The notes under the pieces: generated by a model
What the model saw: the letters and a program-made list of their open reading frames with translations, nothing else
Databases searched by the model: none
What the model was told of the DNA's origin: nothing
Shown: one piece after another, positions 7,421 through 34,400 of the stretch
Position numbering within the stretch: position 1 is the stretch's first letter
How the letters are laid out: each line of letters begins with the position of its first letter
Assembly (NCBI GenBank): GCA_024277615.1
Contig: JAJRUW010000075.1
Location: 11,012 to 75,011, forward strand
Origin: Fidelibacterota bacterium
Lineage (GTDB): Bacteria; Fidelibacterota; Marinisomatia; SCGC-AAA003-L08; JACNLC01
Length of the DNA: 64,000 nt
Direction: 5' to 3'
Translations under genes and position numbers: made by a program

Positions 7421-8919
7421 ATGAAAACATTTTTACCAATTCTTATAATCTCCGTTTCAATCCTGTTTGCTCAACACGACTTGTACCTGTTGGTTCATGA
7501 CAAAGCAACATGAGAACCCTAAGTGGGAGCGAATATTTTTATCGCTGATCTCAATACAGGCACTACCAGCGATGAAAACGGAGCGGCCATAATTCGCCAT
7601 ATTCCTACAGGCTCCTTTGTGATTGATATTTCTTTTATGGGATATAAGAACGAACAGCGGCATATCTCCCTCGCGCAGGATGACAAACTGCAAAATTTAA
7701 AAATATACCTGGAACCGGTATTTCTACCCGGACTCACCGTAAAAGTCAATACGACACGAACAAACGGCATCCTCAATGAAGAACCGGTAAGAATTGAAGT
7801 CCTTGGTTCTGAAGAAGTCCGGGAGGAGACCGCCATAAAACCGGGGAATATTTCTAAACTTTCGGAGAAACCAGCGGCATTCAAATTCAGCAGACTTCTG
7901 CAACTTCAGGGAATGTGAGCTTCAGGATTCAGGGACTTGAGGGGAGATTTACCCAATTATTAAAGGATGGGTTTCCACTCTACAGCGGTTTCTCCAGCGG
8001 GTTGTCTTTACTGCAAATCCCGCCTTTGGATTTACTGCAAGTGGAAGTTATTAAAGGTTCGGCTTCGGCCCTGTACAGTGGGGATGCCATTGCCGGAATT
8101 GTCAATCTCATCACAAAAAAACCTGCTGATCAACCGGAATGGAATACTATCATTAATGCAACTCACAAAAAAGGAACGGATTTCAGTTCCTATTATTCCA
8201 ATCGGCTGGGCAAATGGGGTATGACCTTTCTCTTGAGTCACAGCCGGCAGTCTGCCTTTGATGTTGACCATGATGGTTACAGTGATATCCCCAAATTCAC
8301 ATCGTCCACGATAAACCCGAAAATTTTCTATTATTTTGATAAATCCAGCTCTCTGATGATCGGACTGACAACTTCAGTTGACCACCGCAGTGGTGGAGAT
8401 ATTTATATCATTGAAAACGGCCCCGGTAGCGGACACAGTTTTATCGAGATAAACAAAACCAACCGATTATTATCCAGGGCTGAATATAAACTTCAACTTG
8501 GTAACGGAGATCGGCTTTACGTGAAAACCAGCGTGAACCGATTCGTAAGGGAAATATCAATTCCAGGGACACTTTTTAAAGGCAGTCATACGATTATTTC
8601 AGGTATCAATTTTGTCACCGATACATTTAAGGCTGATCCTGCTTCCCAACCCTCGACCAGCTCGATGAACTATGCTTACACAACTCCCGGAATTTATTTG
8701 CAGGATGGTTGGAAGAAATCGGGTGCGCTGGGTCTTTATGCCACTATCAGAGCAGATCTGAATAATGAGTACGGTTTATTTTTAATTCCTCATTTTTCAC
8801 TGCTCTATAAATATTCCGACAGGCTGAACAGCCGCATCAGTATCGGAACCGGATACAAGCTGCCCACACTTTTTGCTGCAGAGGCCGGAGACGCCGATGC
8901 GCTATCTCAAAAAGAATGA
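7421..8919 (+). pseudogene. TonB-dependent receptor, decayed (2 in-frame stops, 1 frameshift, 3' truncated)
   Basis: A signal peptide at 7421 (MKTFLPILIISVSILFAQ) runs in frame into the CarboxypepD_reg domain of ORF 7523..7918, but through TGA (7511-7513) and TAA (7520-7522). The reading DKAT*EP*VGANIF corresponds to the usual ..TGEPL.GANV motif. The plug motif ..FGETSGIQIQQTSATSGNVSFRIQGL needs one extra T in the run at 7860-7862 to join ORF 7915..8919. The barrel ends about 150-250 aa early without a C-terminal aromatic residue. Confidence 0.8.
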
Positions 8920-12695: not shown

Positions 12696-15600
12696 CTACT
12701 TTAAAAGTATAACTTTGCGCAGGGCAGAGTTTCTTCCGGATGTAAGCCTGATCAGATACAGTCCGCTGCTGAGGTCGCGGCCATCCAAATTATACCGATA
12801 TGTACCTGCCGGTTTGAATCCCGCTACAAGCTCGCGAATGAGCACTCCCTGAATATTGTAAAGTCCAAGCTGTATCTCCCTGTCATCGGGAAGATCATAA
12901 GTGATGGCGGTCACAGGATTAAACGGATTTGGACAGATCTGGCGAATGCCGAAGACTTCCGGGATTTCCACAACCCTGGCTGACAGGCTGTTTCCATGCC
13001 AGTCAGTAACCACATTATCCTGAATATCAAGTGACCCGGAATATCTGAATAGAATGCCCCGTTCGAGGGTTAAGCCCTGCAAATTGAATATGAGCAGTTG
13101 GCCATCGCCGCGGCGGAGCTGCCATCCCGCAGGCAATGAGGCCGGGTCAGGATTGAAATCACCACGGGTCATCAGCTGAAAGCCTGCGGCCGGTCCTTCG
13201 CTTTGCACCTCAACCAGAGTCGGTTTTAGTAACAGCGCAGCCGCAGTGAGGGGCGTCTCAAGGGCATAATCACCGATGATGATCTGGATGATCAGGACCA
13301 GATCGACCACCGTAATCTCACCTTCTCCGGTAAGATCGCATGTCAGCAGCAGATCATCCGTGGGCAGTTGGTTTGAGATAATCCAATCAACGATCAAAAC
13401 TACGTCGGAGACATCTGTGGTTCCGTCTCCGTTAAAATCGCCGGCATAGGCGCAGCTGTCATCTTCAAAATTTGACGAAGGATCATAATTGACAGCCTCG
13501 GGGTCGGTACAGCCGTAACAGGCATCCCCCGGAAGGCCTGTATCTCCCCCTACACAACCGCATTCATTTTCGCAGGCTATGCCGAAGCAGTCTCCATTGC
13601 AGTCGATGTCACTGCCGGCCTCATGGTTTGAATTTCCTCCGGAACAGACGCCGCAGGCATCCGGTTCAGCGCTGCCGAAACAATCCCCGTTGCAGTCCAT
13701 ATCGCTGTTGCTTTCATGAGCCGTATTCCCTCCGGAACAGACACCACAGTCATCTATTGCAGCGCTGCCGAAGCAATCGCCGTTACAGTCCATATCGCTG
13801 TTGGCTTCGTGATCCGAGCTCCCTGCAGAGCAAACGCCGCAGTCGTCTATAAAGGCTACGCCAAAGCACTCGCCGCTGCAGTCCGGGCCAGCGCCAAAGT
13901 CATACCCTTCCGGGGCGGGGTCGTTACTGCCGGTCCCCAACGAGCCATCCGGACAGACATTACAGGCGTCGATATCGCTGTTGGCTGCATGGCCTGAGCT
14001 GCCTCCGGAGCAGACATTGCAGTCATCAAAGAAGGCAGTGCCGAAGCAGTCTCCGTTGCAGTCGATGTCACTGCCGGCCTCATGGTTTGAATTTCCCCCG
14101 GAACAGACGCCGCAGTCATCTACTGCAGCGCTGCCGAAACAGTCCCCGTTGCAGTCCATATCACTATTGCTCTCATGAGCCGTATTCCCTCCGGAACACA
14201 CACCGCAGTAGTCTAGTGAAGCAGCTCCATTGCAGTCGCCGTTGCAGTCGATAATGCCGTCACAGGTCACGATTACATTGAACTGGATAGTGCCGGTTCC
14301 GCCATTTCCGTCGTAGGCTGATACGGTTACATCTGCAGTCCCCGGCCTGAGGGCTGCAACAGTTCCCAGCGTCTCCACCAGACTGACCTCGACCACACTT
14401 TCGTCCGAGGAGGTACCTGCATAGGTGAGCGGGTTGCCTTCGATGTCATCGAACAGATCAACATTGAAATCGGCAGAAGTGCCCGCAAGCAGCTCCAGGT
14501 CTCCAAGATCTGCAACCGGGAAAGGAGGGTCGTTTACAGAAGTAACGCTGAATTGTACCGCCGTCAGATCCGAAAGCTGAGTGGGCGTGTCATCGGTAAC
14601 AGCAATGAGCAGTTCTTCGCTGCCAAACCAGTTTTCGTCCGGCGGCGTGACAGTAAGCAGATTGTCGGCGTCCAGCAGAACTGTCAAATCCGTATTTCCC
14701 GAAACCGTCCAGAAAACCGGATCGCCGTCCAATTCCAGCAAATAATCATCTAAATCAAAGGGAACAAAGCTACTGCCCTCGTCAACAACCTGTTCCGGAA
14801 TGGGATTTATAAAAGGCGGAAGATCGAAAGGACCGGTATAAGAGTAAGTCACAAAATCCGATCCGGCAAAGGAATTCAAGGTATTCTGATCCGTGGCTGT
14901 GTAAACAATCGTTTCGCTGCCCAGCCAGTTCGGGTCTCTGATCTCGACTATGGCGTTATCCTGTGGGTCAATCGTTACGTGGAGGAACTCGGCCTGGAGA
15001 ATTTCCGGGTTCAGGGGCGATCCGAAAGCATAATTGTTAATGAAAACATAGGATTCACTGACCGGCAGCAGAATCGAATTGGTTGCGTCATAAAATTTCA
15101 GTGTGATTTCTTCTCCATTTTGATCTGCATAGACCGTCAGAAAGTAAAACCAGCTGTCTATGGCAAAAATGGGCGTGACCACTCCCCGGCATTCATTCCC
15201 CACGAAGGCTGCCAATTGATCAGCCGGATTCTCCGTTTCCATACCTCTGGCAACAACCCTGGCAGTGATGGTCATGGATAACTCAAAATCACCGGGGTTC
15301 ACGGACCAGGCAGGATCTTGGTCCTCAACCAGAGGGGGCAGGAAATGGTAACTCCAACTGACCTGGTCACCATCCAGTTCAACGAGATAGTCATCCAGTG
15401 CCACGTCCGTAAAACTCCCCCCGAAAGGAACCATTTGATCGGGGATATCCAGGACTGCAGGAGGGTGGTCAAAGGGCAGGACTGTGAACAGGGCATTGTC
15501 TGCCCCGGAGAGCCCCTGATCCATCAAATCGGTGGCGGTAAAAGTGAGCAGCTCACTGCCGGACCAGTCGGATGCGGGTGCCTGAACTGTCACTCCGTTT

Positions 15601-16187
15601 TCCGGATCAATGGTCACGAGCAGGTCCGTCTGCCCCGAAACATTCCAGGATACGGGATTGCCGTCAAGTTCAATGAGGTAGTCGTCAAGATCGAAGGCTG
15701 CAAAAGTACCCCCAGGAGGAATTTCCTGATCCGGAATATCCATCACACCCGGAGCATGATCAAGATAGATCAGCGCATTCAGAGGGATCGGGTCATAGGC
15801 CGACCCGTAATTAGCGCCGTTACTGAAAACGATGCTTTCGATGACCGGTACAACCACATCCTCACCGGCTACATAGGCCCGGAATGAGAGTTCTTCACCG
15901 TCGGTATTGGCATAAACAGTGAGGAAATAAATCCAGGTATCCAAAATATTCACCGGCTGGGACACACCTCTGCAGACATCTCCCGCGAAGGCTCCGAGAA
16001 TGTTTGCCGGGTCCGTGGCGAGAACTTCGTCCACGTACAACAGAGCCCGGACATTTGCAGTGCTGCTGTAATCTGCAGGATTAACGGACCACGCCGGCGG
16101 ATTAGCACTCAACAGCGATATTAGCAGCAAACTTAACAGTGTGATCTTCAGATTGAAAGGAGGATTATACGAGGTATTCATTGTCAT
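12696..16187 (-). CDS. secreted multidomain adhesin-like protein (1163 aa): 2 unknown ~110-aa modules, Ig/cadherin-like repeats, ~8 Cys-rich 32-aa repeats, dockerin-like pair, T9SS C-terminal sorting domain
   Basis: Signal peptide. Repeated IPDQ..P.GG.F..FDLDDYL.ELDG..V.W modules. DCNGDCFGSA..DDCGVCSGGN..HE..SD repeats. Dockerin-like GDFNGDGTTDVSDVVLIV...CDLTGEGEITVVDLVLII. C-terminal CPNPFNPVTAITYDLP...LRKVILLK. Confidence 0.85.
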   Translation of the reverse strand: MTMNTSYNPPFNLKITLLSLLLISLLSANPPAWSVNPADYSSTANVRALLYVDEVLATDPANILGAFAGDVCRGVSQPVNILDTWIYFLTVYANTDGEELSFRAYVAGEDVVVPVIESIVFSNGANYGSAYDPIPLNALIYLDHAPGVMDIPDQEIPPGGTFAAFDLDDYLIELDGNPVSWNVSGQTDLLVTIDPENGVTVQAPASDWSGSELLTFTATDLMDQGLSGADNALFTVLPFDHPPAVLDIPDQMVPFGGSFTDVALDDYLVELDGDQVSWSYHFLPPLVEDQDPAWSVNPGDFELSMTITARVVARGMETENPADQLAAFVGNECRGVVTPIFAIDSWFYFLTVYADQNGEEITLKFYDATNSILLPVSESYVFINNYAFGSPLNPEILQAEFLHVTIDPQDNAIVEIRDPNWLGSETIVYTATDQNTLNSFAGSDFVTYSYTGPFDLPPFINPIPEQVVDEGSSFVPFDLDDYLLELDGDPVFWTVSGNTDLTVLLDADNLLTVTPPDENWFGSEELLIAVTDDTPTQLSDLTAVQFSVTSVNDPPFPVADLGDLELLAGTSADFNVDLFDDIEGNPLTYAGTSSDESVVEVSLVETLGTVAALRPGTADVTVSAYDGNGGTGTIQFNVIVTCDGIIDCNGDCNGAASLDYCGVCSGGNTAHESNSDMDCNGDCFGSAAVDDCGVCSGGNSNHEAGSDIDCNGDCFGTAFFDDCNVCSGGSSGHAANSDIDACNVCPDGSLGTGSNDPAPEGYDFGAGPDCSGECFGVAFIDDCGVCSAGSSDHEANSDMDCNGDCFGSAAIDDCGVCSGGNTAHESNSDMDCNGDCFGSAEPDACGVCSGGNSNHEAGSDIDCNGDCFGIACENECGCVGGDTGLPGDACYGCTDPEAVNYDPSSNFEDDSCAYAGDFNGDGTTDVSDVVLIVDWIISNQLPTDDLLLTCDLTGEGEITVVDLVLIIQIIIGDYALETPLTAAALLLKPTLVEVQSEGPAAGFQLMTRGDFNPDPASLPAGWQLRRGDGQLLIFNLQGLTLERGILFRYSGSLDIQDNVVTDWHGNSLSARVVEIPEVFGIRQICPNPFNPVTAITYDLPDDREIQLGLYNIQGVLIRELVAGFKPAGTYRYNLDGRDLSSGLYLIRLTSGRNSALRKVILLK
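13540..14260 (-). repeat. in-frame ~96-bp tandem repeats encoding Cys-rich 32-aa units, with a ~175-bp higher-order duplication
   Basis: Segments 13581-13755 and 14040-14215 are about 90% identical by eye (gccgaagcagtctcc[a/g]ttgcagtcgatgtcactgccggcctcatggtttgaatttcc...). The whole tract lies inside CDS 12696..16187. Confidence 0.85.
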
Positions 16188-16196
16188 TTCTCCTGT

Positions 16197-19100
16197 TTAT
16201 TTGACCAAAGCCAGTTTGTGGTTTGCACTGAAATCACCTGCTGTCAGGCGGTAGAAATAAATTCCGGACGGCACAGCGCTGCCGGATTGATCCTCTCCGC
16301 GCCAGGTCACTGTTTTGTAACCGGCAGATTGAAATTCATCCACAAGGATCCGCACCACTTCACCGTGCAGGTTGTAAATGATGAGAGAGACCTTCACATC
16401 CACGGGCAAAGAGTATTCTATGGCAGTCACAGGATTAAAAGGATTTGGATAATTCTGACTGAGGCTGAAATTGTGCGGCAGCAGCACGCCCGGGTTGGTG
16501 GTTCCGGTGAGAATCAGCGGATCATCCGGTGAGCCCAGAATGCCATCAGCCTGATAGGGGATGGTTTCTGCCAGTGCAATGGTCTTATCGAGAATCGGGG
16601 AATACAACTGCAGGCGAAGATTGCTGTTGTCCAGATCCCCGTAAAGTGTGAGAAAGAACAGGTAGCGGTTCATTTCGGGCAGAAAAACGGGTTGTCCAAC
16701 ACCTCTGCATGCGAGACCGTCAAAAGCTCCCAAAAGCATATCCGGATCTTCCAGAACTGCAGAATCAATTCGGACTTGGGCGACAACGGACATGTTCGAC
16801 TGAAAAGCCATGGGATCGACCAGCCAGTTCTGCGAATTGCTTTCCGCCGGCGTGGGAGACCTTTTGGCCTCCATCCTCGGCAGGAGTTCACCGGGCATAG
16901 GATAGGTCAGCGTACCTGCGTTTTGCGCGTAAAGTTTATAACCGTATTGGGGATTCATGAAATTCAGATTACCCAGCCAGCCGACTCCCTCAAGATACAT
17001 GGAAAACGACTCTGTGCTCTTGATCAAATCCCCCGTGAAAGAGATCAGGGACAGGAGAGCATCGTTTACATTATAGGTCATCTGCGGCAGATACCCGATC
17101 CAGTTCCAGCCGTTACTAATGGGGATGGATTCGGTTTCCAGATCAACCGGGTACCCCGCGGCGACAAGTGTATCAATATTTGACAGATGGATCATGTACA
17201 TGGACTGATTGCTAAGAGAGGTTAGAGTTCCCAGCCAGCCATAGCTGCCGGCGAACTGGCTGTAGCTGTTCTGTGCTTTGATTTGATCATCCACGGCCGG
17301 GGACAGGGAAGCAAGTATATTGTTAATTCCGGCATCGGCAGGCGTCACATTCAGAGAAAACCAGGACCACCCCGGTGCAAAATCGAATGACTGAATGATC
17401 TGGTTTGTGGCGCTGATGGTGACGGGAGCGGTTGGGGTTCCCAGTACATCGTTGGCAACAAAGGTATAGTTTTCGATGACCTGCCCCATGAGACTGCAGG
17501 CCGAGGCATCCCAGACCTGAATTGCCAGATCCTCACCATCGACCTGATTGCTGAAGACGGTAAGATACACCTGATAAGCATGGGTGTTGGGGATATTCTC
17601 CAGTTCCGGGACATATTGAACATTTTGAAGGCCTCTTAATTCATCCCCAACAAAAACGGCAACCTTATCATAAGTATCCTCTGATAGGACATCGTCAACG
17701 GACAGCAGGGCAATGATGTTCATGGAGTATTCATAATTCATAGGTGAAAATTCCCAGGTTGGCGGATGACACAGAACCCTGATATCTACCGGCATCGGTT
17801 CGTCTCCCATGGTCCCGTGAGCATATACCGTCTGAATATAGTGCCCCGCACCGGGTTCCTGATTCAGTACAAAGGTAATGGTCTCTGCACCGCCGGGAGG
17901 TAAAATCCCTCCGGTGGGGAAGACGGTGAGCCAATCGGGAATATTGGTGATCTCGTAGGAACGGTTGCTGCCGCCCACATTCATCAGGGTACGGGTAGTC
18001 TGGAAAGAGTCTTCAACCCAGATCACTACATTGTTGATGGCATTTCCCACCCAGGCAAGGGGATTGCGGTTCACGAAAAATTCCCACTGAACGGGGTCTG
18101 ATGAGCGGTTGCCATAGAGGTCTTCCACGGGTCCCACAGAAGCCCGGAGGGTCTGGTTTTCGATGAAGGTATTCTCGATATTGGGATTGATCACAATGGT
18201 ATTACCGCCGCAGGTAAATGTGAAATCGATGGGGTTACCGGTTACGGTGTTCATCAGTGTGATGTCTCCTGCTCCCACATTGATAGCGCCGCATTGCAGA
18301 TCTTCATTAAAAGTAATGGCGATATCGTCATCCGGACCCAGAATGCCGTTCACAGGAGCCGGATTCCCCAGCAGTTCCGGTGGGTTTCGGTCAATAATAC
18401 CGGATACGATATTGGAAGTTCCGGGAACCAGTCCGGCATCACACACCGCCACCGCGCGCAACTGGTAAGCATTGTCAATAATGATCGCAGGGCTGATATT
18501 AAAAGGCAAAAGCACATAGTCATCAATGAGATTTTCAGCCTGCACAGAGGCAGTTGTAAACCAGTCTCCAACGCGTTCGCCATTGTTTTCGTCACGGATG
18601 CCCTCCAGGTTGGCCAGCAGGCTTCGGGGCTGGCCGGGAGCGAAATCTGATATGTCGTGCTCCCCGTCGAAGGAGGTGAGAAGGGGATATATGGGGGCAA
18701 TGTCGTCAGCTGCCGGCATAGATATGTCGTAATCTCCGGCAAGGTCACGAACGGCGGTATTTTCCCGGTATTGGAGATCAATGCGAAGTAAATTCGCATC
18801 ATAGCGGTCATAGCCATCAACCGTCACCCAGACGGAATCCGATCCGAAATCACCGGCAACCAGCCACCCGTCTTCCGGCACGGCAATGTGAGATTCACTG
18901 CAGGGCACCTGGAATTCCACAGACACACTCACTGTATCGGCCAGCACAAGGGGCCAGCCCGCCTGCCAGCTTTCATATTCACAAGGGGGGACTAACTGGA
19001 TCATCAGATCATTGTAGATATAGGCTTCCGGGCCCCGCGCAATGGTCATGACTGCATCAAGTACTTCACCGGCGGGCACGAAGAAATTAAGGGAACTCTG

Positions 19101-22100
19101 GATGATCACACCGTTGACGGCCACGACGGCGCCATCCGGATTGGTCCCCTGTATGACCCTGACAGAATATTCACGATCATCATCGGACTGGCTGTCGTTG
19201 CCGATGGAGAGACTGAATTCCGCCGCTTCATCCGGTGGGACATCGACTTGCGCATATGGTGTCACGTTCAGCACCGGACCATCCCGCGGAACCGTACCCT
19301 GCTGCCAGGGACAGCTGCTGAAACCGCTCTGGATCTGAAATACCGGTGTGGCATACACCTGATCCCGCAAAACATCAACGGTAAAGGAGTCTCCGATGTC
19401 ATCGTCTGCCAATGTATAGCCCGTTGTAGTTGTATGTGTTGAGCTGCTTCCCCCGCCGGCGCCCATGGTAACTCCAAGGTTAATTTTGGAGCCTCCGGAA
19501 GCTCCAACACCATTGATGGTGAGCCCTAATTCCGTAGCCAGTTCGGTATTGACCTCTGCTTCAACGACATAAGTCAGATTGTTGGTTGTTTCATAAACCT
19601 CTTCATATTGATATTCTACGCCGGCGTCGAATGAGAGATTCCGGTCAAATATGGCATCCTGTTTTGTCTGCTCATTCTGGGCCACAAAACCCTGCCAGAG
19701 GGCGGCGGAGACCGTGTCGCCTATCGTGATAAGGTTGGGGATGACTTCTTCCTCAATCTGGAATTCGGAATAAAAATAGGTTGTGGCGAACCCGTTGGGT
19801 GCAATGATGATATTGGCCGAATCGGCCGGTGAGCAGGTATTGTTATCGATGTACATAACATCGGTAACCCCGTAAAGCAGGTTCATAGCGCCTCCCATGT
19901 AAACATCACCCGCTCTGCCAACCGTAGAAACCGTCTCTGTTGTTGTCCAGGTCCAGACTTGTTCGTCCGCTGAAGCCGTGTGCATATTTATGCTGATGCT
20001 GGAAGTGAAGTCTGCAGTGACGTCAACATTGGTCCCGACGCTGATGAAAGGTGTGCCGGTTTCCATGTCGATGTCGGGTCCCAAATGTGCTGTGGCCCAT
20101 GTATTGGTACCCACATCAAGAGCTACAGAAAACTGCAATGACTGCTCAAAGGTACTGCTTTCAGACCAATAGGCGGAAGAACCGTCTCCTGGCGGTCTAT
20201 GTATGATCAGGAAGGGTATCTCCGGAGTTGTAGTCGCAAATGCCTGTTCATCCCGCGGCCTGAAGCCCACCACATAAGCCCATTCCGTTACGGTGGCCTG
20301 CCGGTTCAGCTCATCCGTGGCGATGGCCTGAATGCTTTTTTGGTAAGGATGACCACCACCACTGAGAATATTGGGAATTCCAGCCTCCACAATAATATCA
20401 ATGGCACTATCAAGAAATACAAACGTCGTATCCGTGGTTGAATTCCCAAAATCCGTAATGATTTGAACCATGCCGGTATCGATGGGACAGGTGTTGGTAT
20501 CCACGCCGCTGCTGCTGTAATTGATATAGGATTCAAAAACACTGATATTCAGGGGATAGGTTTCAAACTGATTAAGCACCCGTAAATAGCAGCTGTCAAG
20601 GGGAAAACCCGTAATGCTTACTTCGGGCAGAGCCCGGTAGATGAAATCCTTAACCCTGTCGGCTTGTCCAAGCTGAACCGTGTCACCGGAGAAGAAGTTG
20701 TCAATTGCAGGGTCAGGATGATCCACCGTGATGTTGTAAATCAAGGGGGGGAGATTCTGAAGCGACCAGGTCCCCAGGGAAGTATCCGGCACAACGGAAG
20801 TTTCGATACAGTTATTCACTGCCGTAAGAGTAACCGTAATATCACCCTGCGAAGGGGTAATGGGATATTCGCAAGCTCCGCCGGCGACAATCCCGCTAAT
20901 GTTATGAGTCATGGTGTCATCAAAATACAGGGCGGTCAGCGGCGCAGAGATCATGGGCAGTTCAATGAACGGAGGAATGAAGTCATGGTCCTGATAGCGG
21001 CAGCTCAGCAGGTCTCCGCTGGAGCCGGGTTCCAGTTCAACGATGAATTTACCATCCACATCGGTATAATTCGGGATGGGAAAAGGTTCACCGTTCAGAA
21101 GCATTTCGACGCCCTGCTGGAAACATGCTGTGTTCGCATAGCGCACATAACCGCTTACGGGGATCATGGAAATATCCGTAAAATTGACCAAATCCACAGA
21201 AGTATTACTTTGATTCAGTGTGGCCTGGCGGCTCTCGGGTTCATAAACATGTTCGAACACTTCATTCAGAGGAATGTCCATGTTCCAGGCAGCCTCGTGG
21301 ATGGTACCTGTCAGGAGATTACCGGTAGCGTCGGCAATCAAATCTCCCGATCCCTCATTCATTTTCCAGTAACCGGCAAGGCCGAATTCATCACCCACGA
21401 GAGGCAGGTTCATACTGCCGCCCACCTGGGCTTCGCTCCGGGCATAATTCCAATAACGGAATTCATCCAGTCTGCCCGAAAAATACAGGGCCGACAGCTC
21501 CGGTGCCTGACGCCCGATGACCATTTCCGAAAGATCCGGGACAGTCGTTCCCACGGCCGATGTTCCTGCGCTGGCGCCGTCAATATACAATGTCAGGTCC
21601 GTGTTATCGCAGGTCAGGGCAAAGTGGTGCCAGAGGTTATCATTAAAGGCAGTGGGGGAGATGATCTCAGTGGCATAATGTATGCCACGGACATTGCCGG
21701 CTGCAGTGAGCTCCACTGCAATTCTGGGAGAACCGTCCGCAGGATCAACGGCGGCAAAAAGGGTGGAGGCGGGTCCCCCCGCAGTCTTGAACCAACCTTC
21801 GATGGTATAGCCTGCTGTCAGATCGATCCGCTCTCCCGTGAAACTGATGTAGGAAGCTGTTCCGTTAAATACAAGTGAGCGGCCGATGGCGGTGGTCTTT
21901 GAGGGCGTAACCGTAAAAGTTGTACCGCCTGCGTAAAAGATTCCCCGTATGGCATAATTCCCTGTGCTGTCCGTCAGCGCTCCCACATATACGGGGGCCG
22001 TGAGATTATTATGGTTAACACCGCAGATTTTGCCATCGAAATTGTTATCTGTGAGATCAAAAATGGTCTCTCCTTCAGCCTCGTCAAATTTCCAGTAGGC

Positions 22101-23255
22101 GGCCAGTCCGGCTTCGTCACCGGACAGGGTGATATCCGCCTGCTTGAGCAGGTCTTCCCAACTGCGGGCCAAATTCCAGAGTCTGAAATCATCCAGACGT
22201 CCTTCAAAAAAGAGTTGTGAGGATTGCGGGTCCCGCTTACCAAGGAGGATCTCTGTTGAGTGATTAATGGGTCCGGCGGCCGCGGTACTCCCTACAATAG
22301 CGCCATCCACATACAGGGTCATGGCGTTACTCTCAAAAACTGCGGCGAGATGGTGCCATTCCGCATCTGTAGTAAAAGCGTTCACAGTGGTGATATCCGT
22401 TTCCTGACCTGCTGAAGGTCTGTGCTGCCAATGTAATTTTCCTTCGCTGTCCAGTTCTACCAAAACACTGATATTTGCCGTTGCAGAATCAACGGCTGCA
22501 AAAATTGTCTGCTGTGCCGTGACAATGGAGCGGAACCAGGTTTCGATGGTGTAATCCCCGGTGAGACCCCTAAACTGTCGATTGGCTCCACTTGTATCAT
22601 CAAAGAAATAGATATAGCTGCTGCCATCAAACTCGGCAGAACGTCCCAGGTTCGGCGTAAGCATTACCTTTGTATCCAGCATGGGATTGCCGCTGCGGGT
22701 CTCCACATGGCCCGTGATGACACCGTTGGGGTTCAGAAATCCGATATCATTTTGCGCATAGCTGACGCCCATATCATTGCCGCTGGTGACGCCATAATTA
22801 TAGTACTCACCTGCAAATACATTCATATCCTGATATTGGGTCTGTTCAACAGGGAGTTGGGTGAGCACATAGCCGTTGCGGTAGAGTGTCACCGAACTAT
22901 CCGTAACCGGCGGTCCTGTACGATCATCCTCCACCGTCCATTCAACCAGAACCATGTTTTGAAAATCGCCGTCCGAGGCTCTTACCAGGGGAGGTCGGGG
23001 CTCTTTGAGATAAAAGCCCCAGAAACCTAAAGCTGCACTGTTTTCCGAATAATTGGTGGCAGTGCCAATGAAAGGCTGGCCTAAGGTCATGAAAGTGCTG
23101 TACTGGTTATTGGTCATGCTGCCGGAAACCAGTGCATTGTTCAGTGTGGTGTAGGGCACCGAATAGTTTGGCTCACAGGTTTCCTGGGCCGCCAGCGCTA
23201 TGGGCAGGATCAGGATGATAGCTGATAGAAATTGCCTTTGAAATCGTTTATACAT
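16197..23255 (-). CDS. giant secreted protein (2352 aa) with two LamG/concanavalin-A-like (Laminin_G_3-type) domains, 2 unknown ~110-aa modules and a T9SS C-terminal sorting domain
   Basis: Signal peptide. LamG signatures ..WHHLAAVF..LYVDG..GRLDDFRLWNLARS (about 22160-22634) and ..WHHFALTC..LYIDG..GRLDEFRYWNYARS (about 21431-21872). C-terminal NYPNPFNPVTAIEYSLP...HKLALVK. Confidence 0.85.
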   Translation of the reverse strand: MYKRFQRQFLSAIILILPIALAAQETCEPNYSVPYTTLNNALVSGSMTNNQYSTFMTLGQPFIGTATNYSENSAALGFWGFYLKEPRPPLVRASDGDFQNMVLVEWTVEDDRTGPPVTDSSVTLYRNGYVLTQLPVEQTQYQDMNVFAGEYYNYGVTSGNDMGVSYAQNDIGFLNPNGVITGHVETRSGNPMLDTKVMLTPNLGRSAEFDGSSYIYFFDDTSGANRQFRGLTGDYTIETWFRSIVTAQQTIFAAVDSATANISVLVELDSEGKLHWQHRPSAGQETDITTVNAFTTDAEWHHLAAVFESNAMTLYVDGAIVGSTAAAGPINHSTEILLGKRDPQSSQLFFEGRLDDFRLWNLARSWEDLLKQADITLSGDEAGLAAYWKFDEAEGETIFDLTDNNFDGKICGVNHNNLTAPVYVGALTDSTGNYAIRGIFYAGGTTFTVTPSKTTAIGRSLVFNGTASYISFTGERIDLTAGYTIEGWFKTAGGPASTLFAAVDPADGSPRIAVELTAAGNVRGIHYATEIISPTAFNDNLWHHFALTCDNTDLTLYIDGASAGTSAVGTTVPDLSEMVIGRQAPELSALYFSGRLDEFRYWNYARSEAQVGGSMNLPLVGDEFGLAGYWKMNEGSGDLIADATGNLLTGTIHEAAWNMDIPLNEVFEHVYEPESRQATLNQSNTSVDLVNFTDISMIPVSGYVRYANTACFQQGVEMLLNGEPFPIPNYTDVDGKFIVELEPGSSGDLLSCRYQDHDFIPPFIELPMISAPLTALYFDDTMTHNISGIVAGGACEYPITPSQGDITVTLTAVNNCIETSVVPDTSLGTWSLQNLPPLIYNITVDHPDPAIDNFFSGDTVQLGQADRVKDFIYRALPEVSITGFPLDSCYLRVLNQFETYPLNISVFESYINYSSSGVDTNTCPIDTGMVQIITDFGNSTTDTTFVFLDSAIDIIVEAGIPNILSGGGHPYQKSIQAIATDELNRQATVTEWAYVVGFRPRDEQAFATTTPEIPFLIIHRPPGDGSSAYWSESSTFEQSLQFSVALDVGTNTWATAHLGPDIDMETGTPFISVGTNVDVTADFTSSISINMHTASADEQVWTWTTTETVSTVGRAGDVYMGGAMNLLYGVTDVMYIDNNTCSPADSANIIIAPNGFATTYFYSEFQIEEEVIPNLITIGDTVSAALWQGFVAQNEQTKQDAIFDRNLSFDAGVEYQYEEVYETTNNLTYVVEAEVNTELATELGLTINGVGASGGSKINLGVTMGAGGGSSSTHTTTTGYTLADDDIGDSFTVDVLRDQVYATPVFQIQSGFSSCPWQQGTVPRDGPVLNVTPYAQVDVPPDEAAEFSLSIGNDSQSDDDREYSVRVIQGTNPDGAVVAVNGVIIQSSLNFFVPAGEVLDAVMTIARGPEAYIYNDLMIQLVPPCEYESWQAGWPLVLADTVSVSVEFQVPCSESHIAVPEDGWLVAGDFGSDSVWVTVDGYDRYDANLLRIDLQYRENTAVRDLAGDYDISMPAADDIAPIYPLLTSFDGEHDISDFAPGQPRSLLANLEGIRDENNGERVGDWFTTASVQAENLIDDYVLLPFNISPAIIIDNAYQLRAVAVCDAGLVPGTSNIVSGIIDRNPPELLGNPAPVNGILGPDDDIAITFNEDLQCGAINVGAGDITLMNTVTGNPIDFTFTCGGNTIVINPNIENTFIENQTLRASVGPVEDLYGNRSSDPVQWEFFVNRNPLAWVGNAINNVVIWVEDSFQTTRTLMNVGGSNRSYEITNIPDWLTVFPTGGILPPGGAETITFVLNQEPGAGHYIQTVYAHGTMGDEPMPVDIRVLCHPPTWEFSPMNYEYSMNIIALLSVDDVLSEDTYDKVAVFVGDELRGLQNVQYVPELENIPNTHAYQVYLTVFSNQVDGEDLAIQVWDASACSLMGQVIENYTFVANDVLGTPTAPVTISATNQIIQSFDFAPGWSWFSLNVTPADAGINNILASLSPAVDDQIKAQNSYSQFAGSYGWLGTLTSLSNQSMYMIHLSNIDTLVAAGYPVDLETESIPISNGWNWIGYLPQMTYNVNDALLSLISFTGDLIKSTESFSMYLEGVGWLGNLNFMNPQYGYKLYAQNAGTLTYPMPGELLPRMEAKRSPTPAESNSQNWLVDPMAFQSNMSVVAQVRIDSAVLEDPDMLLGAFDGLACRGVGQPVFLPEMNRYLFFLTLYGDLDNSNLRLQLYSPILDKTIALAETIPYQADGILGSPDDPLILTGTTNPGVLLPHNFSLSQNYPNPFNPVTAIEYSLPVDVKVSLIIYNLHGEVVRILVDEFQSAGYKTVTWRGEDQSGSAVPSGIYFYRLTAGDFSANHKLALVK

Positions 23256-23310
23256 TGTCTTCCTCCAAAAGATTGGTCGATTAATGTTCAGTTTTGGGTA
23301 AGAAGGTCTG

Positions 23311-24870
23311 TTAACGATTCTCCAGAGCTTCGAGACGCTGCCGCAGATCGTTGATCAGAGCGTTTTGTGCTTCAATTTCCGCCTGTTGCTCCTGAATGGC
23401 AGCGGTGAGAATCGGGATCATACCGATCTGGTTGACGCCCTTGTAATGGATTTCCACCATATCCGGTTCAGCTTCCACATTGTCACCATTCTTGTTATAG
23501 ACATTAACTTCGTCTTTCACAAGTTCAGGGAATATTTCTTCAAGTTCCTGGGCGATGAAGCCGAATTGTGTCCCGGCGGGCAGGTTCATCTTCTCTGCCT
23601 CTCCGGTATGTTTGTAATTGTAGGTGTGGACTTTGATCTGTCCAATCCGGTTCAAAACAGGGTCCACAGGCTGCACATCGGTTTTGAATTTACGATCAGA
23701 TGGACCTGTCAGCGAGCCAGTGTAGTGCAGATCACCTTCAAAATAGCCTGCATAGTTAGTAGAGTTAGCATATATTGCGGCACCGGCAGAGTTCGGTGAG
23801 GAATTTAAAAACCACCCCGTTCTTAGTTGATCACTCAAAACTTCAAGGGGATAGCCGGAGGTTGTCCCAATCCATAATGAATTAGCAACTAAGGAGCCAT
23901 TAACTTGTAATTGAGCATTTGGTGTGTTACTACCGATACCAATACCGACTTTACCGGCAAATATCGCTGATATATTAGCATCAGATGGGTCCAGATAGTA
24001 GTTGTTATCATCTTTATCCAGGAAGATCGAACCGCTAATATCTCCATTTACATCCAGTTTAACAACCGGGGCATTAAGTCCGTTGCCAATACCTACATTG
24101 CCATTATTGGCCACCAGTATCTCTGTTGTGTTACCCACCTTAAACTGAACCTCTCCGGAACCATTATTATCGGCATCTGTCGTGATTACTGTGTTCCCGT
24201 TGCTGGTGAGGGAACTGGCAGAACCTCCAAAAAAAGCACTCGACAGCGAGCTGCCGTCACTAAACATAATCGCGCCGCCATTGCGCATTTTAAGATTCCC
24301 GTTGATGTCGAGGGCTTCTGCAGGTGTGGATACACGCACACCAAAATTGCCGGCGGGGTCAACGACTATGATGTCCTCACCGTTGGATTGTTCGATGTGC
24401 AGCTTTGTGTCAGCAGAATCTGCGATAATATGGAGAGCAGCATCAGGGCTGAAGGTACCCACACCCACGGGTCCTACGGACGGGAAAACATTTTCCGAAC
24501 CCAGCACGGACATGGCGGCCGGTGATTTCAACAGCTTGAAACGGGGTTCCAGTTCCACACCGCCCTCGATGGAAAGACCCAGCCAGTAAGTTGTATCGAA
24601 GGGGAGAGCATCCAGGGGAGTAACTGACCCCAGCTCGGCATTGTACACACCGTGTAGCACCTGAACGCTGCCCTGGGTTTCTTCCCACAGAGCTGTTCCG
24701 CCGGTCGCCTGATCATACAGGCGGAAGGTCATGGCATAGGTCCCGTCTGAAACGGTTTTACCGAGAGGGTCTCTTAAGACTCCCTGTACGCTGATAGTAT
24801 CGGCACAGAGAAGGGTGATCATCATGCAGAAAAGAAGATAATACAAACTCGTTTTTAAGGTTGATTTCAT
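23311..24870 (-). CDS. tail-fibre-like surface protein with C-terminal Peptidase_S74 intramolecular-chaperone (auto-processing) domain
   Basis: Signal peptide. N-terminal ISVQGVLRDPLGKTV..FRLYD..GGTALWEE module. Gly/Asn-rich beta-helix-like middle region. C-terminal SDRKFKTDVQPV...FGFIAQELEEIFPELV plus the coiled coil AAIQEQQAEIEAQNALINDLRQRLEALE. AAGGAG Shine-Dalgarno sequence upstream. Confidence 0.8.
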   Translation of the reverse strand: MKSTLKTSLYYLLFCMMITLLCADTISVQGVLRDPLGKTVSDGTYAMTFRLYDQATGGTALWEETQGSVQVLHGVYNAELGSVTPLDALPFDTTYWLGLSIEGGVELEPRFKLLKSPAAMSVLGSENVFPSVGPVGVGTFSPDAALHIIADSADTKLHIEQSNGEDIIVVDPAGNFGVRVSTPAEALDINGNLKMRNGGAIMFSDGSSLSSAFFGGSASSLTSNGNTVITTDADNNGSGEVQFKVGNTTEILVANNGNVGIGNGLNAPVVKLDVNGDISGSIFLDKDDNNYYLDPSDANISAIFAGKVGIGIGSNTPNAQLQVNGSLVANSLWIGTTSGYPLEVLSDQLRTGWFLNSSPNSAGAAIYANSTNYAGYFEGDLHYTGSLTGPSDRKFKTDVQPVDPVLNRIGQIKVHTYNYKHTGEAEKMNLPAGTQFGFIAQELEEIFPELVKDEVNVYNKNGDNVEAEPDMVEIHYKGVNQIGMIPILTAAIQEQQAEIEAQNALINDLRQRLEALENR

Positions 24871-25275
24871 GTTGTGCTCCTTTTGATTAAAAATATTAAT
24901 TTTGTTCGATTACCAGGAAAATCATCATTTTGGGTAAAAAAATCAAAGCATTCATACCATCAAACATTTGCCTTGAACCGGATCCGGGGCGGAACGATCG
25001 AATGGACAACCTGTGGGAATCTCGGACCAAGAAGTATTATGGCCAATAAATTAACATGGCTAACTCCGGATTAGCGAAAACACTTACATGACCACATTAG
25101 CTATGTATTAATTTAATAATGTTTAACTATATTCACAATCAAAATATTTAATATTTTATTCAACTTTTGGTAATCCAAATGTCAAGGGACATGGGGTAGA
25201 TTTATCCGCGTTGCTCCGAAGTCTGATCTTTGAATGTCTGCAAATTGGCAGGCTGTACAGCTGATACCGCTCCGG

Positions 25276-26989: not shown

Positions 26990-27915
26990 TTATTCATCAA
27001 ACAGCTTGTGGTAAAAATGGCAATAAGGTGTCTCGCCGTTGTTTTGATAATAATCCTGATGATATGCTTCTGCCTCCCAGAATTTCGCAGCAGGTAATAG
27101 CTGAGTTGCTACATCTAAACCTTTATTTCTCAGACGTCCGATGAGGTTTTCGGCGATTTTTTTCTGCTGCTTATCGAAATAGAAGATTTTGGAAAGATAT
27201 TGTGCGCCGATGTCAGGCCCCTGTCCGTTTTTTTGCGTTGGGTCATGGGTTTCAAAAAAAAGTTTTGTAAGCTCTTCGTATGAAATTACCTCGGGATCAA
27301 AGGTAACCTTTACGGCTTCAACATGGCCGGTCGTACCCGAACTGACAGCCTGATAGTCGGGATCTTTCAGCTTTCCGCCGGTATATCCCACAGTGGTGGA
27401 TAGCACTCCCTGGGCTTTTTGAAAATAGAATTCAGTGCCCCAGAAACAGCCTGAGGCAAAAATAGCGGTTTCGATCGCTTCACGTTTAACGGCCGCCTGA
27501 AAATCCAGTGAAAGTGAATTGACACAATAGCGTGTATTCCGTGGAGTGAATCCCTCGCCGGTAAAGACGTGGCCCAAATGTCCGCCGCAATTTGCACAAA
27601 GAATCTCTGTGCGTCTGCCATCTGCATCGGATACTTTTTTATGGCATTCGGAATTGCGGCATCAAAACTCGGCCACCCGCATTGGGCATCAAATTTATCC
27701 GACGATCGATACAACTCCGCACCGCAGCGTTTGCAGGTATAAACACCATTTTCATCAAAATCATAATATTTGCCCGAAAAAGGTGCTTCGGTCCCCTTGT
27801 CGATTATGATGGCCTTTTCGGCTTCAGTGAGTGGGTTGAATTTCATATTATTATCTCCTGCAGTGACGAATAGTATAAATCCTGCCATCAGCAAGGTACG
27901 AATGCAATATTTCAT
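26990..27915 (-). pseudogene. msrAB: fused peptide-methionine sulfoxide reductase MsrB-MsrA, interrupted by a -1 frameshift in an A6 run
   Basis: ORF 27367..27915 carries the MsrB N-half ([26 protein letters not shown]). ORF 26990..27577 carries the MsrB end plus full MsrA ([20 protein letters not shown]...[10 protein letters not shown]...). Adding one A to the run at 27635-27640 reads [28 protein letters not shown] continuously. The start is 27915 (signal-peptide-like) or ATG 27846, which is preceded by GGAGAT. Confidence 0.85.
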
Positions 27916-31464: not shown

Positions 31465-34400
31465 TTATTTCAGCAGAGTGATCTTCTGAGTCAACACTTC
31501 ATTTGGTGTATCCATCTTTACCAGGTAAATACCTGAAGGCATGGCATTGCCATTTTTATTAGTGCCGCTCCAGACAGCCGAATAGGTTCCGGCAGATCTG
31601 AATTCATTCACCAATGTGGAAACATTCTGTCCTAACATATTATACACCGAAATATTAACCAGTCCGTCCTGCGGAAGTGTAAAACTGATGTTTGTTTCGG
31701 GGTTAAACGGATTAGGATAGTTTGACAGTAATGCATACTCATCTGCTATAGTCAGTTCGAGATAGTTTGCACCTGAAGCTGCGGTGACTTCATCAATGCT
31801 GAAATCGCCCGTGGCAGTGAAAAGTTCACTCTGCGGTGCCAGTACGACTAAGGTCGTGACGCCATCCTGAGTATTATAGTCGGCGAGATATGCATCATCT
31901 GCCATCTCAATGGCAAAGTCATCTCCATGACTGAGCTTCATATAAACTCCGCCAATATCACCATTCCCTTGGATAGAAACGCTGCCGTTATTGTTGATGA
32001 TGCTAGCAGAAGTAGCAGGTGTCGTTCTCCCTCCCTGATTCAGGACGAAGTCGATCATGATGACGATATCGAGAATATCGATATTACCATTATTATCCAT
32101 ATCCGAGTGACAGAAAGTATATTGACTGTCGTCAATAGTACCCAGAATATAGCCTACTACGGCAACAATATCGAGGACATCGATATTACCATCACCGTTA
32201 ACATCTCCGTTTCCTACACATACACCGAGACAGGAAAGAGCTGTATTGTAATCTTCGACTTCCAGAGGTGGATCTAAGGTCCACACATCGGTTGGGAAAG
32301 TATAGTCACCGAAGACGCCGTCAACCGGGCACATATATCTGGCGCGGAAACGTCCGAAGGCAAAACCACCACCTTCCTGTACACCGGTGCCGTCGGCGTC
32401 AACATATTCCCAGACATAGATCTGATGCCAGGGTGCCGGTCCGTTGATCGTGACGGTTGCGGTAAATGTACCATCGCCATTGTCAGTGGCCAGCCAGCGT
32501 GAGCCGTCGCCATTGCCATAGCCGAATCCCTGAACATAATTAAACCATTTGTCTTTCAGGATCACATAGACTTCATCTCCCGGAGTATAAAATTCATTAC
32601 CGCTCATGTCGAGATTGAAGGTCATCGTGAGTGATTGTCCTTCAGGCAATACTGCACCCGCCGGCAGGTCATAATAACCGGCCAGTGGCAGCTGCAGGAT
32701 ATCACCATCGGCGGATGGTCCGAGGTTAAAGGTTCTGTTTCCGCCGCCAAACTGCGGTGAGTCTTCCCAACCCATGTCGCCGTTGTAAAACGGACCATAA
32801 ATTGCCTCGAGATAGGCTATGGATTCTTCACTCTGATTCAGGAAGAATTTATATTCCATCTGAGTGGAAGAATAATTAGTGATGGTCAATGGCAGGGTGA
32901 AAATATTCGTACCGGGCTGACGGACCATTACGCTTTCTTCCGGGGGATCTGCATTCCAGCCGTTAAATCCACCGCGAACCTGGACTTCATCGTTCCGGGC
33001 AAGACTGAACAGCGGCATACCGGTTGCGCCGGCTTCATCAAGCCATTCACTCATATCCACTGAAAAGATAACCGTCTTGGTAACGATTTCATCTTCGATA
33101 GGTGGCTGATCATTCCAGTAAACAAAGGCCAATGTGCCGTCTTCGGTCACATCTGCCGTACGATTGCCGATTGAAGATTCCCAGCCATCAGGACCGGCGA
33201 GGAATTTATATTCAATGGCCACGCGTCCGGGAACAAAATGATATGTTCCACCCCAGAATTCACCCGTACCTTCATCCGTTAGTGGTTCAGCAGACCAGCC
33301 GTTCATTGTTCCGGCAATATACATGGTAGTACCATCATACTGAGGAATTCCGGCAGTACTGACGCGGAAGTAAATATCAATATCGTCTGTGACATCATAG
33401 GGTGGTGTGTTTCCGGCTTCCCAGTAATCGATGGGAAGATCGATTGGCAGGCCATCTCCGGAGACGGCAAAACTGCGGTTACTGGTTGATTCCCATTGGT
33501 CGCCTCCCGGCGTTACGTTTACATATTTATACTCATAATTACCAACTGCGAGAGGATCTGCTGTGGTAAATGACCAATAGTCGCCGCCATCATTTGTAAT
33601 TTCCCAATCGACACCCGACCAGCCATTCATGCTGCCGCGGATCACGATTGTATTGGTACTGTCAGTGAATCCCGGTGCGGTTGAAGTATTGAGATGGAAG
33701 GTCACCAGACTCGGGTTAGTGTCAGCCGGACAGGCATCAGCCAAATTAAAGCAGACTACCGGCAGGACAGTGTCCACGTCGGGTACGAGCAATGATCTGT
33801 TAGAGGACTCGTCCGCACCCCAGGCATTGCCGTTGATAAATTTATACTCAACAGTTTCGCCCGGATTCAGGCTCAGTGTTACAGCATAGACGGCATCAGT
33901 AACGAGAGTCAATTCGATTCCTGCAGGATCCCAGAAGGGGTACGGGTCGGGGAAACCACCGGCGACATGTACTCCATCGCCTGACACAGTTTCCAGAGCC
34001 ATATCCACCTGGAAGGTTATTTCAACAGTGGTGGTACCACCTGAAACAGCAATATCAGCTTCTGATCTGGGCTGTAATTTATAAGCACCGTAGCTGTAGT
34101 CTCCCACGCCGGTAACGTCATAGGAAGTCCCGAGTTCAGGCAAGAATGCAAACAGTTTATCATCCACTACGGCGGGACCGGAACCGTCATCAACGGACCA
34201 TTCACCGTATCCCAGGTCGGCGTTGTCACAATTTGAGTTTGTAAACGAGACCAACACACCTTCATAGGCTTCCAGGAAGTCACCTGTTGAAATTGCTGCG
34301 GGGTCCGGTAGAACATCACGGGCTGAGTTAAGCGTAAATCCGGTGATATTACTGATCTCTGTGAGACCATAATATTCCGAGACACTACCAACTATGGTGA

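Follow-up and report, generated by a model that had tools for sequence, protein, structure and literature searches.

The window analysed here is a stretch of 64,000 nucleotides on contig C58 of a 2.4-Mb metagenome-assembled genome (MAG) that is 77% complete. It carries on its minus strand a cassette of three genes that probably encodes an undescribed cell-surface attachment device. The first gene, g1 (positions 23311-24870), encodes a fibre-type protein of 519 aa; the second, g2 (16197-23255), a giant protein of 2352 aa with LamG domains; the third, g3 (12696-16187), a protein of 1163 aa that has in common with the giant a module of ~110 aa, here called D110. Conservation of the cassette extends over Marinimicrobia, Cloacimonadota, Ignavibacteriota and Bacteroidota, and in it a fibre gene accompanies giants of the LamG form. 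The more specific reading, to which we would give about even chances, is that the three genes encode one surface device, namely a stalk anchored by a type IX secretion system (T9SS) with an exchangeable trimeric fibre for attachment. A previous description of the locus, made from the letters alone and called below the sequence-only reading, had proposed a dedicated surface fibre or adhesion apparatus. The unit is borne out by the gene order and by the relation of the fibre to the MAT-type fibres discussed below; adhesion as its purpose is what we infer.

The gaps between the genes are 55 bp (g1-g2) and 9 bp (g2-g3), and the three products together amount to 4034 aa; these values, as well as the coordinates of the open reading frames (ORFs), were already exact in the sequence-only reading. 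Its domain calls (Peptidase_S74, LamG, dockerin and the T9SS C-terminal domains, CTDs) agree with Pfam and NCBIfam, and its remark that no enzymatic domain is recognisable is in accordance with the lack of any enzyme family at E <= 0.01 in these two collections for g1-g3. The nearest homologues carry the labels FCB group bacterium or Candidatus (Neo)marinimicrobiota.

Within the taxonomic order of the host, the arrangement of one or more fibre genes, a giant and a D110-bearing protein was found in genomes G001, G002, G005 (twice), G011 and G015. The fibre and the giant only are present at a second locus of G015 and in G014 and G022, and three tandem fibre genes were found in each of G005 and G011. 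At least five genera from three families of this order have the gene order fibre, LamG giant and D110-bearing T9SS protein, and the same order is observed in other phyla. On a Cloacimonadota contig a 781-aa S74 fibre is followed by a 2387-aa giant and a 2170-aa cadherin/Big_9 T9SS protein. Phaeodactylibacter xiamenensis has three small proteins with the N-terminal fibre domain (fibN) whose tips are other than S74, plus a giant of 2291 aa and an HYR protein of 1311 aa, and an Ignavibacteriales genome has two fibre-giant pairs. The sequence-only reading would have been abandoned by its author if the three genes never co-occurred elsewhere; the search for the arrangement gave the opposite result, because the order recurs both in relatives and in other phyla.

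The link between the fibre and the giant was quantified on the basis of the family-defining core of the giant. A scan of one genome per species, built on a 5-sequence core alignment, found the core encoded in 419 stretches, from which 80 loci were fetched for the adjacency counts; a LamG-type giant was counted if at least 2 kb of upstream DNA was available. Several phyla are represented among these loci, which, being related, do not count as independent cases. For 33 of the 35 LamG-type giants a same-strand fibN gene lies under 400 bp upstream, and for the remaining two it lies within 2.5 kb. None of the eight short giants (~1600 aa), which are devoid of LamG, D110 and the further module d190, has an upstream fibN gene.

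Pairwise divergence was compared in 24 related fibre-giant pairs, the partial r being calculated after removal of the mean of the other segments. The domain fibN is correlated best of all segments with g2N, the giant's N-terminal region (r 0.88, partial r 0.66, permutation p 5e-4), as well as with the first LamG domain (LamG1; r 0.84, partial r 0.52, permutation p 5e-4), and the partial r for the remaining nine segments of the giant is about -0.3 to 0.1. The divergence of fibN tracks specifically the N-terminal ~400 residues of the giant. The S74 domain of the fibre, which is encoded closer to g2 than fibN, served as a control for linkage: in the same nine pairs its partial r with g2N is 0.06 versus 0.54 for fibN, which, for a set of nine pairs only, argues against pure physical linkage.

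The product of g1 (P0001) has 470 detectable homologues. They have the N-terminal ~125 residues in common, with the conserved domain starting directly after the signal peptide, and differ in their C-termini, which are formed by S74, phage tail collar (PF07484/PF21939), PF07603 and other domains. In g1 itself Peptidase_S74 (PF13884) is matched at residues 391-452 with 61.5 bits at a cut-off of 22. The domain opens with SDRKFK (residues 391-396), which corresponds to the SDxxxK motif, and the Ser/Lys dyad is present; autocleavage of g1 at Ser391 is predicted from this sequence. Capping-loop motifs were located by a regular expression at residues 133, 174, 257 and 306. A search against PDB sequences gives the MYRF ICA domain (7dc3, E 1.4e-8) and chaperones of phage fibres, together with weak matches to solved MAT fibres, namely Bd2133 (8ond, E 1e-3), 8oml and 8on4.

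MAT-type fibres were described in 2024 as prey-recognition fibres of Bdellovibrio (PMC10769870). Residues 21-85 of P0001 align with the NCBIfam model of their N-terminal domain (NF053851, Bdello_MAT_N) at E 0.002 and 17.9 bits, far below the cut-off of 60, and the alignment spans only the first ~78 of the 162 model positions. The same model is matched by 13 of 17 members of the fibN family (best E 8e-12), and no other NCBIfam family is matched by them. Since P0001 itself reaches 17.9 bits versus the required 60, the homology between g1 and the MAT fibres is based on these family-level matches. Falling below the curated NCBI cut-off, g1 is best described, as judged from sequence comparison, as a short protein distantly related to the S74-type MAT fibres and not as a member of the curated subfamily.

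Two further fibN paralogues are present in the same genome (G000:C16:29105-30481, locus L047, and G000:C66:3131-3646, locus L046). They match Bdello_MAT_N at 1e-7 and 1e-9, better than g1 does. Each of them is broken by an in-frame TAA, so these are either decaying copies or the result of assembly errors. Among ten sampled fibres encoded beside giants the C-terminal end is S74 in six and another tip in four, a division into S74 and non-S74 forms that MATs show as well; tip types vary between loci and not within a locus. A pattern of constant N-domain and hypervariable tip was considered for tandem fibre paralogues and was not seen, the copies diverging evenly along their length (40-55%).

The two other proteins of the cassette bear the marks of T9SS substrates. 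The N-termini of all three proteins are hydrophobic and signal-peptide-like as judged by eye. The type A CTD of g3 is matched by TIGR04183 with 30.2 bits (cut-off 23), and that of g2 is also above the cut-off (Table 1). The genome encodes the T9SS translocon SprA (contig C9, 620 bits), at least 39 CTD-bearing ORFs and a PorU-like ORF that scores 306 bits, below its 420-bit cut-off, and is truncated in this incomplete MAG. By their CTDs, their signal peptides and the presence of the secretion machinery in the genome, g2 and g3 are T9SS type A cargo. Neither Pfam nor NCBIfam finds a T9SS sorting domain in g1, which ends in S74. The D110 modules of the two T9SS proteins are related (BLASTP of g2 residues 1830-2249 versus g3 residues 29-397, E 3e-21) and have no match in Pfam or among PDB sequences; the downstream genes of the cassette in other phyla likewise start with D110. 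In the giant two D110 modules enclose d190, and this D110-d190-D110 cassette is missing from the short giants that have no fibre gene.

The following arrangement is proposed for the device. The type A sorting domains would export g2 and g3 and fix them at the cell surface, and because the C-terminal domains would be fixed there, the N-termini of both proteins would point outwards. The MAT-like g1 would be exported by Sec and trimerise, assisted by the S74 chaperone at its C-terminus; this chaperone would then cut itself off at Ser391 and expose the fibre tip. The domain fibN may dock on the distal N-terminal region of the giant, formed by g2N and the first LamG domain, the giant serving as stalk and anchor and the fibre as an exchangeable recognition tip. 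The shared D110 modules may couple g2 to g3. Assembled in this way, the device would attach the cell to a target, which may be another cell, a particle or a polymer.

Several points weigh against this arrangement. Contact between the proteins, their surface exposure and binding are all deduced indirectly, and the score of P0001 lies far below the Bdello_MAT_N cut-off. As g1 is devoid of a CTD, its path across the outer membrane is not explained by the model; joint export with the giant would be one way. The model also assigns no role to the giant's large conserved core. The co-divergence described above could come partly from recombination blocks, since g2N and LamG1 are encoded nearest the fibre gene, and it was derived from 24 related pairs with nine in the control. 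Fibres with fibN are present in genomes of one family of the order (f5) that lack the giant, so the fibre does not need it. Genomes G004, G006 and G008, in turn, carry giants with no adjacent fibre gene. In this fibre-less variant (G004:C15:236-33185, G006:C27:37-37664 and G008:C154:14976-35077; loci L035-L040) two tandem giants of 2750-2860 aa have an extra N-terminal LamG domain with Cys-rich insertions, and the D110-bearing protein encoded next is 5318 to 6861 aa long (6861 in G006; in G008 it ends at the contig edge).

The independent occurrence of fibres and giants in these genomes is what would be expected if the three proteins were co-regulated but acted separately, the fibre being anchored to lipopolysaccharide or to an outer-membrane protein and the giants being independent adhesins or binding proteins; the conserved arrangement of the genes would then be due to co-expression alone. 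The Bdellovibrio MATs function with no known giant partner, and the even divergence of tandem fibre paralogues, in which the N-domain is not strictly constant, fits separate action as well. However, adjacency in 33 of 35 cases across phyla, and for the LamG form only, exceeds what co-regulation usually preserves, and the co-divergence of fibN is confined to g2N and LamG1. Separate action is considered unlikely.

An AlphaFold2 (AF2) model covering residues 655-1840 of g2 (mean predicted local distance difference test score, pLDDT, 78.5) shows about eight Ig-like domains plus the unique core. Modelled alone with 79 sequences, the core has pLDDT 79.6 and a predicted template modelling score (pTM) of 0.74, and consists of beta-hairpins of 20-33 residues with low-confidence tips plus a helical hairpin. 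It is recognised by the invariant motifs PPGDxS, GDVYxGGAxN, GFATTxxYSE, SFDAG, LADDDxGDxF, VYxTPVF and SSCPW. The hairpins exhibit strict hydrophobic/polar alternation throughout the family and have Ser/Thr/Gly-rich turns; such alternation is compatible with a packed sheet and with membrane insertion alike. Foldseek with the core model gives no credible match in PDB or BFVD (template modelling score, TM, ~0.1, probability <0.3), and with the whole 1186-residue model the search is dominated by multi-Ig proteins at TM ~0.1 and is uninformative. Pfam and PDB sequence profiles give no significant match for the core, only sub-threshold hints: ETX_MTX2 and CEL_III_C in 3 of 79 members each (E >= 0.002), outer-membrane beta-barrel families, and the PDB entry 7y79, named 'Toxin', at E 0.023. 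By sequence and by predicted structure, the ~360-aa core appears to have no relative in Pfam, PDB or BFVD.

The core family is large, with 2868 cluster representatives (clusters at 50% identity) at E <= 1e-3 and 1414 at E <= 1e-30. Its hosts are Marinimicrobia, Cloacimonadota, Ignavibacteriota, Bacteroidota (especially Saprospiraceae), Latescibacterota, KSB1 and Fibrobacterota, and databases give its members no names other than 'LamG domain-containing' or 'T9SS type A sorting domain-containing'. Outside the core, g2N is 47-57% identical among syntenic giants. Residues ~1503-1561 of g2 (window 18563-18740) form an acidic disordered insert of ~60 residues with pLDDT ~30, which aligns poorly with homologues. 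The d190 module (window 16842-17408) has itself arisen by duplication, its ~85-aa unit being marked by GW(N/S)W ... D.IK.Q ... GW.G.L motifs; the module is without a family match and confined to long, fibre-linked giants.

A function for the core would be provided if the giant were a contact-dependent effector with the core as its beta-pore-forming or membrane-inserting module: the fibre would bring it to the cell of a prey, host or competitor, and the long amphipathic hairpins would insert into the membrane of that cell. The shape of the modelled hairpins with their low-confidence tips and the accompanying helical hairpin, the alternation with Ser/Thr/Gly-rich turns across the family, the entry 7y79 and the fact that the only recurrent weak Pfam hints are CEL_III_C, ETX_MTX2 and outer-membrane beta-barrel families all suit such an effector. 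In addition, many carriers belong to the Saprospiraceae, which are known for predatory or algicidal habits. On the other hand, all toxin-type matches are far below significance and concern less than 4% of the members, and neither PDB nor BFVD yields a pore-forming toxin fold by Foldseek (best TM ~0.1). Membership of the core in the aerolysin, ETX-MTX2 or CEL-III pore-forming families finds no significant sequence or fold match. The alternation is expected in any two-layer beta-sheet, the core is modelled as a soluble packed domain between Ig domains, and a covalently anchored protein of 2352 aa would be an unusual format for a pore former. The giant as an effector of this kind is judged distinctly improbable.

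There is also an extended form of the stalk-and-fibre reading, which we put forward tentatively and hold to be possible rather than probable. According to it, the LamG giant would be the receptor and anchor of MAT-type fibres by way of the contact of fibN with g2N/LamG1, and the fibre, which lacks a sorting domain, may even be carried over the outer membrane by the T9SS together with the giant. The core would be a new fold with an activity of its own, possibly target-membrane insertion, and the whole would constitute a new widespread two-part contact/recognition (perhaps attack) system in FCB-group bacteria.

The part of g3 downstream of its D110 modules and Ig-like repeats varies between lineages. 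The dockerin match is marginal (Dockerin_1, PF00404, 23.1 bits versus a cut-off of 22.9; 4uyq_B, E 5.6e-5). Residues ~913-1163, comprising the dockerin and the CTD, match dozens of other T9SS ORFs of the order, and Cys repeats of the g3 type are likewise seen in many of the order's other T9SS proteins. The third protein of other lineages has cadherin, HYR or Ig repeats in place of the dockerin and Cys parts. The Cys repeats and the dockerin+CTD unit are a lineage decoration and not part of the conserved cassette core. The sequence-only reading had called this protein Cys-knot-rich; what the sequence contains is eight 31-aa repeats with four Cys each. The assignment of the dockerin and Cys-rich parts to the dedicated apparatus finds no support in view of the cadherin, HYR or Ig repeats of other lineages. 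A dockerin+CTD cassette like that of g3 is also found elsewhere in the window, in a large T9SS protein (1269 aa, window 31465-35274) that has a lamin-tail domain, CBM20, a dockerin and a FlgD_ig/Por_Secre_tail CTD.

With its dockerin-like module g3 could plug enzymes or partners for polymer degradation into a cellulosome-like scaffold for nutrient capture, in which the LamG domains, having a lectin-type fold, would act as carbohydrate-binding modules; dockerin-bearing proteins of a starch locus are also present in the window. Yet in none of the lineages examined does the cassette have a linked gene for an enzyme, SusC/D or a transporter. No cohesin was detected in the cassette, with no genome-wide cohesin search made. 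The dockerin and Cys repeats are lineage-specific, being replaced elsewhere as described above, and a trimeric phage-type fibre would have no obvious role in such a scaffold. This makes a nutrient-capture scaffold very improbable.

Table 1. Positions of the parts of the three-gene cassette in the window, listed in the direction of transcription.
Feature	Positions	Strand	Remarks
Likely promoter region of cassette	24871..25275	(-)	405 bp, A+T-rich, intergenic, upstream of g1
g1 signal peptide, residues 1-23	24802..24870	(-)	hydrophobic N-terminus MKSTLKTSLYYLLFCMMITLLCA
g1 fibN, N-terminal beta-rich domain, residues 24-150	24421..24801	(-)	proposed docking domain
g1 fibre shaft, residues 151-390	23701..24420	(-)	four G-x-[VF]-G-[VI]...P-x-x-x-L capping-loop-like motifs
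g1 Peptidase_S74 intramolecular chaperone, residues 391-519	23314..23700	(-)	predicted self-cleavage at Ser391 (SDRKFK)
g1-g2 spacer	23256..23310	(-)	55 bp, GGAGGA ribosome-binding site, without terminator-like site
g2 signal peptide and g2N region, residues 1-200 (g2N proper 24-200)	22656..23255	(-)	conserved
g2 two LamG (Laminin_G_3) domains, residues ~201-655	21291..22655	(-)	PF13385 150.6 bits, two stretches
g2 three Ig-like beta-sandwich domains, residues ~698-960	20376..21164	(-)	AF2 pLDDT 80-90
g2 family-defining core, residues ~965-1320	19296..20363	(-)	~360 aa; amphipathic beta-hairpins and helical hairpin (AF2)
g2 beta-sandwich domains, acidic insert, Big_5/Ig region, residues ~1325-1830	17766..19283	(-)	AF2; PF13205 Big_5 26.7 bits
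g2 D110-d190-D110 cassette, residues 1832-2249	16509..17762	(-)	D110 common to g3
g2 T9SS type A C-terminal sorting domain	16200..16451	(-)	TIGR04183 28.4 bits, cut-off 23
g3 signal peptide, D110, two Ig-like repeats, second D110, residues 1-399	14991..16187	(-)	BLASTP versus g2
g3 Ig-like/Big_9 repeats, residues 400-640	14268..14990	(-)	PF17963 40 bits; tandem-95 repeat E 1.6e-5
g3 eight Cys-rich 31-aa repeats	13503..14267	(-)	four Cys each; 93-bp DNA period; lineage-specific
g3 dockerin-like module (residues 915-969), linker, T9SS type A CTD (1085-1160)	12708..13445	(-)	HMM matches

The cassette is surrounded by housekeeping genes: a thiol-redox (thioredoxin) cluster, an MltF-like transglycosylase, MsrB/A, leucyl-tRNA synthetase and two tRNAs. 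A prophage or phage-tail-like remnant with g1 as a true tail fibre might be suspected, since phage tail fibres and tailspikes typically have fibre repeats and an S74 domain, and homologues in several databases bear the names 'tail fiber domain-containing' or 'phage tail protein'. Such a remnant is hardly credible: genes for capsid, tail, baseplate, integrase or terminase are missing from the scanned flanking ORFs, g1 has a Sec signal peptide and the same chromosomal cassette is present in hundreds of species. Because the flanks are housekeeping genes, prophage or tailocin origin was rejected.

Clear ribosome-binding sites precede both g1 (AAGGAG, 8 nt ahead of the ATG) and g2, and no terminator-like site was found in the 55-bp or the 9-bp gap. 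The scan for the sigma-70 consensus and for terminators performed no better than on shuffled sequence and is uninformative for an FCB organism; no promoter was mapped. In other lineages a TPR-containing transcription regulator is encoded just upstream of the fibre genes (L026:3456-5024, L029:6906-8420, L033:9337-11145, L034:1650-3401, L043:5024-7120 and L044:4734-6386), the regulator of Marinimicrobia relatives being TPR+LuxR/GerE, that of Cloacimonadota TPR+sigma-54 activator and that of Phaeodactylibacter TPR+AraC. A homologue of the TPR-LuxR regulator was not found in this 77%-complete genome, where the MltF-like gene occupies that place.

The sequence-only reading had also judged the region by eye to be richer in G+C than its flanks. 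The computed profile confirms an excess but a modest one: the 10.5-kb stretch of g2 and g3 has 51.8% G+C versus 46.6% for the genome, which is the 99.9th percentile among windows of the same size, and the G+C of single genes and that of their third codon positions (GC3; 0.56 versus a mean of 0.507) are only ~+1 to +1.5 standard deviations (SD) away. Foreign origin of the DNA is not claimed from these values, the GC3 per gene being only ~+1 SD in spite of the extreme 10.5-kb value. Among the other ORFs of the window, SelR (MsrB) and PMSR (MsrA) are encoded at 26990-27915 by two overlapping minus-strand ORFs (27367-27915 and 26990-27577), which look like a frameshifted msrBA fusion gene. A truncated or broken TonB-dependent receptor is encoded by the 334-aa ORF at 7915-8919, where nothing but part of the barrel and the end of the TonB-receptor Plug domain is left.

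Literature searches turned up no description of the fibre-giant cassette, of the core domain or of D110. A possible point in common with cellulosomes and amylosomes is the type I dockerin-like module of g3, which passes the Pfam cut-off only marginally. In contrast to these systems, no cohesin or enzymes are linked to the cassette, and the dockerin of g3 belongs to a generic dockerin+CTD cassette of the order which is missing from the cassette in other phyla.

The giant resembles the gliding adhesin SprB and GhpA, two large appendages that the T9SS anchors on Bacteroidota cells, in being a giant Sec and T9SS substrate with Ig-like domains, a C-terminal sorting domain and an N-terminal binding region that would be projected from the outer membrane. 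The 'grappling hook' GhpA (5898 aa) and SprB (6497 aa) have long arrays of Ig-like repeats, 52 in GhpA, which forms heptamers and is encoded beside PorP/PorE homologues (Lien et al. 2024, bioRxiv 10.1101/2024.01.29.577165). Unlike both, g2 has only about eight Ig-like domains together with two LamG domains, the unique ~360-aa core and D110 modules; its CTD is of type A, the scanned flanks hold no PorP/PorE neighbour, and a separate gene encodes a trimeric fibre. Identification of g2 as a GhpA grappling hook was rejected on this architecture, with its few Ig domains and its thioredoxin and MltF-like flanks.

The S74 domain of g1 has the Ser-Lys dyad known from phage fibres and tailspikes (K1F endosialidase, T5 pb1, phi29 gp12; PF13884) and from the MYRF ICA domain (7dc3). 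In K1F endosialidase, T5 pb1, phi29 gp12 and MYRF it is established that S74 drives trimer folding and then cleaves itself. In contrast to phage fibres, g1 is without a surrounding phage and has a signal peptide, and a putative cellular N-terminal docking domain replaces the phage attachment domain.

The closest likeness is to the MAT fibres of Bdellovibrio bacteriovorus, for which surface location and S74 self-cleavage were shown (Caulton et al. 2024, PMC10769870). Like them, g1 carries a conserved beta-rich N-domain of ~125-130 aa behind a Sec signal peptide; its shaft bears V-G-x-x...P-x-x-x-L capping loops (the MAT pattern being V-G-G/N-pi-x-x-P-x-x-x-L), and its C-terminus is an S74 domain with SDxxxK, replaced by alternative tips in relatives; in both cases several paralogues are present per genome, and they are chromosomal and not phage-borne. 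Unlike them, g1 matches the MAT N-domain model only distantly and below the NCBI cut-off, is 519 aa long versus ~1000, and comes from a Marinimicrobia-like FCB bacterium that is not a known predator. Moreover, its gene is fixed directly upstream of that of a giant T9SS LamG protein, and no such neighbour has been described for MATs. The cell-surface partner of the MAT N-domain was stated to be not known, and relatives in other bacteria were mentioned with no partner named (PMC10769870). The giant described here is a testable candidate for the anchor of MAT-type fibres, being encoded at a fixed place beside the fibre gene in four phyla, and the co-divergence of its N-terminal region with fibN adds to this candidacy. 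No member of the giant family has been studied, and its hosts (Marinimicrobia, Saprospiraceae, Cloacimonadota and Ignavibacteriota) are abundant in marine and fresh waters, where the device may shape their attachment to particles, algae or other cells. As Phaeodactylibacter xiamenensis, Neolewinella aquimaris and Flavilitoribacter nigricans are cultivable carriers, genetics and cryo-electron tomography of the fibre and its candidate anchor are possible.

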